Assembly (NCBI GenBank): GCA_041738755.1
Contig: JBGSPE010000007.1
Span: 13,079 to 77,078 of the forward strand
Direction: 5' to 3'
DNA length: 64,000 nt
Source: Minisyncoccia bacterium
GTDB lineage: Bacteria > Patescibacteriota > Minisyncoccia > Phycocordibacterales > UBA918
Position 1 is the first letter of the stretch, and every line of letters starts with the position of its first letter. Position numbers and translations under genes: made by a program. The notes below the pieces were generated by a model. It saw only the letters and a list, made by a program, of their open reading frames with translations. It ran no database searches and was not told where the DNA came from. This document shows positions 60,119 through 61,617 of this stretch, piece after piece.

Positions 60119-60218
60119 AATTGCGCGTGAGAGAGGCTCGGTCACAAATAATTTTGCAAACAAAATTTTCTCGACCCGTAAAACAGTGTATAGACACTGT
60201 TTTACCATTTGTTCACAA

Positions 60219-60270
60219 GCTCACATCATTCCGGCTTTCGAGTCCCCACGGTAGCAAAGCAGTTTGCTAC
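60219..60270. repeat. repeated intergenic hairpin element, copy 1 (palindrome ggtagcaaa gcag tttgctacc at 60249-60270)
   Basis: Shares …tcacaag…catc at(t/g)ccggct…caaagcagtttgc… with copy 2; contains ttcgagtcc, a same-sense copy of the tRNA-Leu T-loop/T-stem. Confidence 0.7.
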
Positions 60271-60272
60271 CT

Positions 60273-60334
60273 TCTCACGCACAGACAAAAATCGCCCTCA
60301 TAAATGAGGGCTGATTTTTGTATCTGTGCGTGAG
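60273..60334. repeat. long imperfect inverted repeat enclosing a terminator hairpin and overlapping the tRNA-Leu 3' end
   Basis: ctcacgcacagacaaaaatc [gccctca taaa tgagggc] gatttttgtatctgtgcgtgag; the right arm includes the tRNA discriminator plus acceptor 3' strand. Confidence 0.8.
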
Positions 60335-60407
60335 AGAGGACTCGAACCTCCACAGGTCACCCTACTAGTTCCTAAGACTAGCGCGTCTACCATTCCGCCA
60401 CTCACGC
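60327..60407 (-). tRNA. tRNA-Leu (anticodon TAG), long variable arm
   Basis: Reverse complement: acceptor GCGTGAG/CTCACGC, anticodon stem CTAGT/ACTAG with loop CTTAGGA, variable arm ~TAGGGTGACCTGTGG, T-loop TTCGAGT, discriminator A. Confidence 0.8.
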
Positions 60408-60644: not shown

Positions 60645-60649
60645 TAATT

Positions 60650-60685
60650 AAAACAACCTCAGACTAAAAAGTCTGAGGTTGTTTT
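60650..60685 (-). terminator. hairpin terminator downstream of tRNA-Lys
   Basis: aaaacaacctcagac taaaaa gtctgaggttgtttt. Confidence 0.7.
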
Positions 60686-60696
60686 AATTCCGGCTG

Positions 60697-60769
60697 TCCG
60701 CCCTCCAGGACTCGAACCTGGGACCATCTCGTTAAGAGCGAGCTGCTCTACCAACTGAGCTAAGGGCGG
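60697..60769 (-). tRNA. tRNA-Lys (anticodon CTT)
   Basis: Reverse complement: acceptor CCGCCCT/AGGGCGG, D-arm GCTC AGTTGGTA GAGC, anticodon stem GCTCG/CGAGA with loop CTCTTAA, T-arm CCAGG TTCGAGT CCTGG, discriminator A. Confidence 0.85.
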
Positions 60770-60824
60770 ATTGGTTGGTCAAGCGAGTTTACAACAAAGT
60801 AGACCTCGACACAAGTCACTTTTG

Positions 60825-60897
60825 AGTCCTGGGTGGGAGTCGAACCCACGTATGGCGGTTTTGCAAACCGCAGCGTTAACCACTTCGCCACCAGGAC
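60825..60897 (-). tRNA. tRNA-Cys (anticodon GCA)
   Basis: Reverse complement: acceptor GTCCTGG/CCAGGAC, anticodon stem GCGGT/ACCGC with loop TTGCAAA, T-arm GTGGG TTCGACT CCCAC, discriminator U (as in bacterial tRNA-Cys). Confidence 0.85.
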
Positions 60898-60988
60898 AGT
60901 ACGGCCCACTATATCACCATTTACCTAAAACAAAAATAACAATTTGGGGGAATACTTGTTATTATGTGAGTATAATCACGTTTACCAT

Positions 60989-61477
60989 ATGGCAACACGT
61001 CGTTGGACAATTAAAGACTTAAAGACAGCAGTGAAATCATCTCACAGCACCCGTGAAGTTATTTTTAAATTAGGTTTAATCCCAGCGGGTGGGAATTATG
61101 AGCAAATAAAAACCGCAATATTTGAGAATAAAATTTCAACTACACATTTTACCGGTAAGGGATGGCGAATAAACCGGACGTTCGCACCAAACCCGCGCAT
61201 CCCACTTTCAAATATATTGGTAGGTCACTCAAAATTTCAAAGCTTCAAACTCAAAAAGCGATTATTTACAGAGGGTTTAAAGTTACAAAAGTGCGAGCTG
61301 TGTGGCTGGGCAGAACAATCACAAGATGGTAGAATCCCTCTCGAACTCGATCATATCAATGGTGACCGTTATGACAATAGAATAGAAAATCTAAGGATTC
61401 TCTGTCCAAATTGTCACAGCTTACAACCTACGCATCGAGGGATGAATCAAAAACGCCGGGTGAAGCAGAAGCCCTAG
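60989..61477 (+). CDS. free-standing HNH endonuclease (homing-endonuclease-like) between tRNA genes
   Basis: C-terminal HNH motif [25 protein letters not shown] with CELCGW…CPNCH zinc ligands; basic N-terminal putative DNA-binding domain; TATAAT at 60971-60976 just upstream of the ATG at 60989. Confidence 0.8.
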
Positions 61478-61483
61478 CAATAG

Positions 61484-61566
61484 GCCAGGGTGGTGGAATG
61501 GTAGACACGCGACACTTAAAATGTCGTGGGAGAAATCCCGTATGGGTTCGAGTCCCATCCCCGGCA
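61484..61566 (+). tRNA. tRNA-Leu (anticodon TAA), long variable arm
   Basis: Acceptor GCCAGGG/CCCCGGC (A4·C69 mismatch), anticodon stem CGACA/TGTCG with loop CTTAAAA, variable-arm hairpin GGGAGAAATCCC, T-arm ATGGG TTCGAGT CCCAT, discriminator A. Confidence 0.75.
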
Positions 61567-61617
61567 CAATAATTGTCAAAAACCCCGGCCAGTATGGCCG
61601 AGGTTTTTGTTTGTCAC

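Follow-up and report, generated by a model that had tools for sequence, protein, structure and literature searches.

A free-standing HNH gene flush with tRNA-Leu(UAA) in Patescibacteria, related to the homing endonucleases of phage tRNA clusters

Lytic phages, T4 and T5 among them, are known to harbour free-standing homing endonucleases in the midst of their tRNA genes, and the intron-encoded endonuclease I-TevI represses its own synthesis by binding, at its promoter, an operator similar to its homing site. The T4 endonuclease SegB cuts within a tRNA gene of phages that lack the endonuclease, and tRNA maturation cuts the segB mRNA between its last and stop codons, a form of control that has also been proposed for the F-Tfl endonucleases of T5, likewise located in a tRNA cluster (PMC2330249). 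SegB has furthermore been linked to segmental duplication and amplification of tRNA regions in T4 and T6 (PMC13096335; PMC2330249). Here we examine a stretch of 64,000 nucleotides (nt) from a Minisyncoccia bacterium (contig JBGSPE010000007.1, positions 13,079 to 77,078; hereafter the window), in which a gene for an HNH endonuclease lies between tRNA-Cys and tRNA-Leu(TAA). Our analysis identifies this gene as a variant, resident in the chromosome and associated with tRNA-Leu(UAA), of the HNH homing endonucleases found in phage tRNA clusters; it is widespread and polymorphic in Patescibacteria. We assign a probability of roughly 70% to the reading that it is a free-standing homing gene of the phage tRNA-cluster family (T5 hegA type, PHROG 10822), representing a chromosomal lineage tied to tRNA-Leu(UAA). 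A literature search returned no description of this HNH/tRNA-Leu(UAA) pairing in Patescibacteria.

An HNH gene at a fixed position

The gene, its domains and its immediate neighbours are located in the window as follows.

60989..61477, plus strand: HNH endonuclease gene of the free-standing homing-endonuclease type, 162 amino acids (aa) plus stop
61010..61126, plus strand: N-terminal three-helix module, putative DNA-binding domain (aa 8-46, AlphaFold2 model)
61292..61420, plus strand: HNH/His-Me finger with a CxxC...CxxC zinc site (aa 102-144, Pfam HNH and HNH_3)
60824..60897, minus strand: tRNA-Cys(gca), the upstream neighbour, inverted relative to the ancestral Cys(+)-Leu(+) tandem
61484..61567, plus strand: tRNA-Leu(taa), conserved partner and presumed endonuclease target, 6 nt past the HNH stop

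A preliminary description of this DNA, made from the sequence alone, had placed a 163-aa HNH protein at 60989-61566. The open reading frame (ORF) is indeed intact, but its 163 codons include the stop and the protein therefore has 162 aa; likewise, the range given starts at the ORF start but takes in tRNA-Leu(taa) at its end. The HNH-zinc string and the CELCGW motif quoted from the protein are both found in the translation, and the HNH assignment is borne out by profile searches, in which Pfam HNH_3 (30.7 bits, cut-off 24.8) and HNH (24.0 bits, cut-off 21.4) both exceed their curated cut-offs over aa 102-144. The zinc-HNH layout is CxxC...DH...N...CxxCH, and C102, C105, D121, H122, N134, C139, C142 and H143 are invariant in an alignment of 31 sequences, so that the catalytic His, Asn and His and the four zinc cysteines are all retained. 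Over its full length (aa 2-160) the protein matches PHROG 10822, 'HNH endonuclease' (E 2.7e-41), and its top match in PADLOC is a 'homing endonuclease' model (4.5e-22). The AlphaFold2 model, with a mean predicted local distance difference test (pLDDT) score of 84, comprises an N-terminal three-helix bundle (helices 8-16, 21-27 and 34-46), a linker and a beta-beta-alpha HNH finger (strands 119-122 and 135-138, helix 140-144). The modelled HNH domain superposes on that of ScoMcrA with a root-mean-square deviation of 2.8 over 55-57 residues, and structural matches to the finger in Foldseek are weak and limited to McrA-type HNH cores. The N-terminal DNA-binding module proposed earlier thus has a counterpart in the modelled bundle, which gives weak helix-turn-helix matches in Foldseek and is present three times, by alignment, in relatives of 272-284 aa. 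With dN/dS (the ratio of nonsynonymous to synonymous substitution rates) at 0.04-0.15 in 11 close homologue pairs, the protein is under strong purifying selection. We read the gene as an intact zinc-HNH nuclease gene whose product is predicted to cleave; no second copy of it was found in the 64-kb window.

Homologues fall into more than 5285 clusters, mostly 60-80% identical, those with names being from Patescibacteria such as Nomurabacteria and Kaiserbacteria; members from Patescibacteria are 58-81% identical to the window protein. In many homologues the C-terminal tail looks like the translation of a tRNA, and we therefore mapped the tRNAs at 80 loci taken from species-representative genomes. 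In 78/82 Patescibacteria loci with a homologue, covering Paceibacteria, Saccharibacteria, Magasanik-, Woese-, Doudna- and Levyibacteria, the HNH gene and tRNA-Leu(taa) share a strand, the gene being -8 to +39 nt upstream of the tRNA, and the four exceptions comprise one masked tRNA, one contig end and two rearranged loci. The conserved protein core stops 51-53 nt past the CPNCH codon, which is exactly where the tRNA starts. The ORF enters the tRNA in 70/119 loci, with a median overlap of 34.5 nt, and otherwise stops about 0-5 nt before it; in every locus the tRNA that comes next is whole and without interruption. Upstream, the neighbour is usually tRNA-Cys(gca), and both it and tRNA-Leu(taa) are complete in the window, where they flank the gene as first described. 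Across Patescibacteria the gene therefore occupies one site, flush with the 5' end of tRNA-Leu(taa) and inside the ancestral infB-rbfA-tRNA-Cys-tRNA-Leu(taa)-Lys-Leu(tag) cluster. We also considered the last 21 nt of the ORF in the window (61454-61474) as a copy of the tRNA 5' end, and set this candidate aside as a weak resemblance.

The McrA-type fold matches, together with weak HNH-core matches to ZorE, the naming of some homologues as 'McrA' by JGI and a report of a patescibacterial phage with tRNA-Leu(TAA), might be taken to indicate a defence or exclusion nuclease that cuts phage-borne tRNA-Leu(UAA) genes, or an arm of a Zorya ZorE or McrA-type system. However, the match to the NCBIfam ZorE model reaches 27 bits where the cut-off is 600 and is limited to the catalytic core, the PADLOC matches to ZorE are restricted to aa 101-159, and the McrA fold match is likewise confined to the HNH core, whereas the best PADLOC match is the generic homing-endonuclease model. 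There are no partner genes nearby, the neighbours being tRNAs, rbfA and infB, and fixed adjacency to a single tRNA is not a trait of defence islands. The accessory defence nuclease envisaged in the preliminary description is thus unsupported, and we regard a role in defence as very improbable.

Occupied, empty and rearranged sites

As a check on presence and absence, which the preliminary description had proposed, we scanned metagenome contigs with the anticodon-arm pattern of these tRNA-Leu(taa) genes, a search that is blind to HNH. Among the loci evaluable in this unbiased scan, the HNH gene lies directly upstream of tRNA-Leu(taa) in 51 and is missing from that position in 59; conservation of the gene is thus far from universal. 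At empty loci tRNA-Cys(+) precedes tRNA-Leu by 1-100 nt, as compared with about 530-570 nt at occupied loci, and hence the gene occupies the Cys-Leu spacer. In a tree of IF-2 sequences from 69 loci, occupied and empty sites interleave in several clades. Decayed copies were also recovered (loci are referred to by our own L numbers): L088 is spread over three frames with an internal deletion, L090 retains only aa 104-154, L157 consists of two fragments, and in L167 only the last 30 nt (encoding PTHRGRNRKR) are left beside the tRNA. In L120 the HNH gene is split by an insertion of ~1.4 kb (about 245-1620) carrying a 430-aa ORF on the opposite strand, which may be an insertion sequence. An empty site, L159, consisting of Cys(-), a 106-nt spacer and Leu(+), shares 89% DNA identity over 185 nt with L040, an occupied relative of the window. 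This pattern of occupied, empty and decayed sites is the behaviour of a selfish homing gene, in agreement with the selfish, free-standing HNH gene first proposed for this locus. Purifying selection on the protein is strong, yet about half of comparable genomes are without the gene. As a separate observation, five empty loci (L148, L160, L162, L173 and L178) contain a T-arm and acceptor-like 3' end (GGGTTCAATTCCCATCATCTCCAC) ~25-30 nt upstream of tRNA-Leu(taa) which is not called as a tRNA and may be the 3' end of a tmRNA.

Comparison of gene orders indicates an ancestral arrangement of infB+ rbfA+ Cys+ [HNH+] Leu(taa)+ Lys(ctt)+ Leu(tag)+, which is kept in all 17 empty loci that include infB. 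Rearrangements were found in 14/51 occupied loci against 0/17 empty loci (Fisher p = 0.010, with loci treated without phylogenetic correction). In the clade to which the window belongs tRNA-Cys is inverted, and Lys and Leu(tag) shift place and strand between genomes; moreover, the tRNA-HNH block is inverted relative to its flanks between the window and L002, and between L005 and L007. The earlier proposal that the gene explains local rearrangements therefore gains correlative support, all 14 rearranged loci being occupied. Further elements of the window that belong to this cluster and its surroundings are listed here.

60326..60407, minus strand: tRNA-Leu(tag), from the ancestral tRNA cluster, inverted and relocated upstream in the window clade
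60696..60769, minus strand: tRNA-Lys(ctt), from the ancestral tRNA cluster, inverted and relocated upstream in the window clade
61577..61609, no strand assigned: hairpin plus T-run after tRNA-Leu, likely a bidirectional terminator shared with rbfA
60122..60136, no strand assigned: direct copy of the tRNA-Leu(tag) 3' end (repeat families D1 and I5)
60273..60291, no strand assigned: inverted copy of the tRNA-Leu(tag) 3' end (repeat families D1 and I5)

In the window, tRNA-Cys(gca) and the HNH ATG are 92 nt apart on opposite strands, and tRNA-Leu(taa) is followed by rbfA and then infB on the minus strand. The D-arms of tRNA-Leu(tag) (minus strand, 60373-60401) and tRNA-Leu(taa) (plus strand, 61490-61518) form a 29-nt inverted repeat with 83% complementarity, and this repeat, which surrounds Lys, Cys and HNH, could be a substrate for inversions between close relatives. 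The preliminary description had also noted a locus full of tRNA-end fragment copies; this holds for the tRNA-Leu(tag) 3' end copies listed above and for an exact 16-nt repeat at 60253 and 60626, but the other short repeats, among them a 13-nt repeat flanking tRNA-Leu (61447, 61576) and several 12-nt repeats, are at chance level. Downstream of tRNA-Lys(ctt) and before tRNA-Leu(tag) there is a perfect 20-bp inverted repeat with a 4-nt loop (60646-60689), which is terminator-like and gives weak, sub-threshold matches to small RNAs in Rfam. The Logan contig L001, an independent assembly with an identical gene, ends within the tRNA-Cys region, 120 nt ahead of the HNH ATG, suggesting strain heterogeneity or a repeat at this junction. 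Elsewhere, L177 contains a tandem duplication (1736-2423) that takes in tRNA-Leu(taa) and the beginning of the gene after it. In the window clade the acceptor stem of tRNA-Leu(taa) contains an A4.C69 mismatch (5' GCCAGGG versus 3' CCCCGGC) that is conserved in at least six genomes (window, L002-L004, L011 and L194), the relatives having GCCGGGG.

Control region, probable insertion footprint and descent of the gene

Four short elements lie upstream of the HNH start codon in the window.

60949..60955, plus strand: motif A, GGAATAC (consensus GGTATAC), D-loop part of a decayed tRNA-Leu 5' half
60957..60965, plus strand: alternative extended -10 element, TGtTATTAT
60971..60976, plus strand: TATAAT -10 box, 12 nt ahead of the ATG
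60980..60986, plus strand: motif B, GTTTACC (consensus GTNTACC), an inverted motif A that overlaps the predicted transcription start

The TATAAT box is present at the distance from the ATG that was originally described, and no Shine-Dalgarno sequence is visible before this ATG; the position of the box implies that the predicted mRNA is leaderless or nearly so. We surveyed the upstream regions of 103 loci and compared the counts with shuffles. A similar -10-like box, often TGnTATAAT, recurs 11-20 nt before the start codon in most of these loci, which likewise implies a leaderless or near-leaderless mRNA. Motif A, allowing at most 1 mismatch, is found at -60..-30 in 68/103 loci versus 14.7 in shuffles, and motif B at -30..-10 in 28/103 versus 2.7. 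The spacing from A to B has a median of 31 nt (interquartile range 30-31) and is exactly 31 nt in the window. A hairpin between the two motifs was rejected, since complementarity within a locus (10.2 of 15) is no better than between loci (9.8), and the lack of covariation beyond the motif is better fitted by protein-binding sites.

Motif A corresponds to a D-loop segment of tRNA-Leu, and at the same site 11/117 loci contain longer pseudo tRNA 5' halves (score at least 12), as compared with 0/102 control regions. These cover tRNA positions 1-26, and up to 36 in some loci. In three cases the pseudo-half is closer to the tRNA-Leu of other lineages than to the resident gene (25/25 versus 17/25 in L057, 23/26 versus 18/26 in L035 and 15/16 versus 10/16 in L116). 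The resident 3' acceptor strand of L035 is perfectly matched by the pseudo-half but has a mismatch with the resident 5' strand, and such pairing is what would be left by replacement of the 5' half; as a general signature the chimeric-tRNA scar was rejected, L035 alone fitting it. Related junctions are seen in L040, in which a 22-nt duplicate of the tRNA 5' end is fused to the ORF, and in L098 (1-290), in which a second, different HNH allele is fused to a tRNA-Leu truncated at nt 63. Taken together, these footprints suggest a founding insertion in the tRNA 5' half, reaching up to the anticodon region, by an element that brought its own replacement 5' half.

In cyanobacteria and plastids the anticodon is also the classic position of the tRNA-Leu(UAA) intron, and a pseudo-half that spans position 1 to about 36 could be seen as the trace of a group I intron in the anticodon loop in which the gene once resided and whose ribozyme has since been lost. 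We consider such an origin extremely improbable, as there is no intron RNA signal in Rfam at E<=1, the tRNA after the ORF is whole and uninterrupted in every locus, and the phage relatives stand free between tRNAs. For the window locus itself, the Rfam scan returned four tRNAs only and no group I intron match at E<=1. The absence of an intron here had been recognised from the start, but the link drawn at the time to group I introns is unsupported because no intron is present and tRNA-Leu(taa) is uninterrupted.

Several lines of comparison bear on how the gene has travelled. L005 and L007 have IF-2 sequences that are 94% identical and flanks with 78-82% DNA identity, whereas their HNH genes are 66% identical and each is nearer to alleles from other genomes. 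More broadly, HNH identity stays flat at ~0.61 as IF-2 identity drops from 0.6 to 0.3, in the unbiased sample too, a plateau that may partly represent saturation, conservation being at least 90% in 37% of columns. Together with the foreign pseudo-tRNAs and the varied tRNA(UAA) settings of the family, these patterns point to movement besides vertical descent. Phage vectors for the patescibacterial alleles were sought, and this candidate was rejected, the closest relative in IMG/VR being 51% identical.

A number of observations, to which the possible saturation of the identity plateau belongs, weigh against a homing gene. The nearest HNH neighbour is usually also the nearest IF-2 neighbour (median rank 2 of 49) and the Mantel correlation between HNH and IF-2 is r = 0.44, so that inheritance is mostly vertical at shallow depth and transfer must be rare or mainly among relatives. 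Within the window clade (IF-2 at least 66% identical) all 18 IF-2-placed loci, three of them from the unbiased sample, are occupied, and this is where the gene approaches universal conservation; full occupancy also fits a host-beneficial role there. No pair of occupied and empty sites more than 90% identical over long flanks was found in the sample. Long pseudo-tRNA copies are present in ~10% of loci, the core elsewhere being ~13 nt, and acceptor-stem mismatches are not enriched at occupied sites (7/119 versus 2/57 at empty sites). No tRNA position distinguishes occupied from empty alleles; immunity through a polymorphism in the tRNA was accordingly rejected, and the escape of the occupied allele from re-cutting is left unexplained. 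Finally, cleavage, the target site, homing by gene conversion and autoregulation are all features that we infer.

An alternative is that the gene is a domesticated one, that is, an ancient HNH insertion inherited vertically since early Patescibacteria and needed by its host, with the absences being losses. Such a gene may, for instance, provide the essential tRNA-Leu(UAA) with a promoter and 5' leader, or encode a repair or recombination nuclease. The very strong purifying selection, the 58-81% identity across classes of the radiation, the agreement between nearest HNH and IF-2 neighbours, the 18/18 occupancy in the window clade and the conservation of the promoter and motifs A and B are all in keeping with this, as is the inversion of tRNA-Cys in the window clade, which makes the HNH promoter the obvious driver of tRNA-Leu. 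A needed gene is, however, hard to reconcile with the fact that about half of comparable tRNA-Leu(taa) sites are without it and that several copies have decayed, with the allele replacement between L005 and L007, or with pseudo 5' halves foreign to the resident tRNA. Furthermore, the family pairs independently with tRNA(UAA), in other orientations, in phages and high-GC bacteria, and those of its relatives that occur in phages, T5 hegA among them, have been assigned to the homing endonucleases. We therefore judge domestication to be unlikely. The two views are compatible and can coexist, as a selfish element that has been locally co-opted.

For the homing gene that we favour, the following course of events is proposed. 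The enzyme would recognise an empty allele and cut or nick its DNA within or next to the tRNA-Leu(UAA) gene, and repair would copy the HNH gene from the occupied allele, with tRNA-Leu and usually also tRNA-Cys as homology arms; since these arms are conserved, the element could cross between distant lineages. The founding insertion would have hit the tRNA 5' half and brought a replacement 5' half with it, so that the tRNA stays whole, while the old 5' half would have been left upstream as a pseudo-fragment, and later transfers would use tRNA-Cys and tRNA-Leu as their arms. Expression would be from the element's own -10 box as a leaderless mRNA and would stay at a low level, the 3' end of this mRNA being lost when RNase P matures the tRNA that abuts or overlaps the ORF, a throttle modelled on the proposals for T4 segB and the T5 F-Tfl genes. 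The inverted motifs 31 nt apart at the promoter probably bind the gene's own protein, which would lead to autorepression. As tRNA-Cys is inverted in the window clade, tRNA-Leu(UAA) there probably depends on transcription through the HNH gene, and such dependence would favour retention of the gene. In its fullest form the proposal is of a phylum-wide cassette that homes into an essential tRNA-Leu(UAA) gene without breaking it, by 5'-half replacement and by use of universal tRNA homology arms, crossing between distant Patescibacteria and perhaps phages, throttling itself twice (through target motifs at the promoter and through RNase P) and acting in some clades, including that of the window, as tRNA driver and promoter of inversions. 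We advance this complete scheme tentatively, as a possibility that is somewhat less probable than its negation.

Relatives in phages and comparison with known systems

A search of phage genome proteins gave 259 records with full-length matches at 36-46% identity, and 10/12 of the phage loci that we inspected have the homologue inside a tRNA cluster. The 3' end of the phage gene touches or overlaps the next tRNA in GodonK (Glu), S-CRM01 (Ile), mistaenkt (Leu(tag)), V45v66 (Gly) and Dorin (Gly), and the closest relatives in IMG/VR are located either 48-109 nt past tRNA-Leu(taa) or 3 nt before it. A further variant of 272-284 aa, with the N-terminal module in three copies, was observed on high-GC contigs (64-75% GC; L202 and L218-L222), where in 6/6 loci it is convergent with a tRNA(UAA) of 76-84 nt located 0-37 nt from its stop and adjoins a gene for an alpha/beta-hydrolase.

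The locus is of wider interest since it places a kind of gene known from lytic phages in bacterial chromosomes, at one essential tRNA gene, across a huge and poorly understood radiation. It provides a natural system for the persistence of selfish nucleases in streamlined genomes of ~1 Mb, in which it can be shown how a selfish gene spares an essential tRNA from damage and tested whether distant lineages exchange genes by way of conserved tRNA genes that serve as landing pads. The protein could also yield site-specific nickases, as it is small (162 aa), exists in more than 5000 natural variants and presumably recognises a long, conserved stretch of DNA. In annotation, a simple explanation becomes available for ORFs that extend into a tRNA, for breaks in assemblies and for inverted tRNA blocks at this locus.

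Amongst described systems, the PHROG 10822 genes of the Gordonia phage GodonK, the Rhodococcus phages Dorin and Francesca, the Synechococcus phage S-CRM01 and the Felix O1-like phage mistaenkt share the same full-length homology and are wedged between tRNAs, but their partner tRNAs vary (Glu, Ile, Gly, Leu) and identity is below 50%, whereas the members in Patescibacteria have a single partner. T5 hegA (T5.075) is 49% identical over aa 77-160 (E 1e-22), shares the string SxKLK...CExCG...ELxHxxGN...NLxxLCPNCH...THxGxN in the nuclease half, and is likewise free-standing, adjoining a tRNA in the T5 tRNA cluster, while the ORFs of T5 hegC and hegD overlap downstream tRNAs as those of the window family do. 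It differs in its length of 227 aa, its other N-terminus and an extra C-terminal domain, and in belonging to a lytic phage rather than a bacterial chromosome; nor is it tied to tRNA-Leu(UAA), and no pseudo-tRNA footprint is known there.

T4 SegB is similar in standing free among tRNA genes with an ORF that ends at the next tRNA, which limits its expression (PMC2330249), and the L177 duplication and the L098 fusion to a truncated tRNA recall the SegB-driven segmental amplification of T4 and T6; its GIY-YIG fold, however, is unrelated to HNH and it spreads in phage co-infection, not on a cellular chromosome. I-TevI offers a parallel for the putative binding of the protein to target-like motifs at its own promoter, here GGTATAC from the tRNA-Leu D-loop, inverted and 31 nt apart. 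It belongs to another nuclease family and is intron-encoded, whereas the window gene lies outside any intron.

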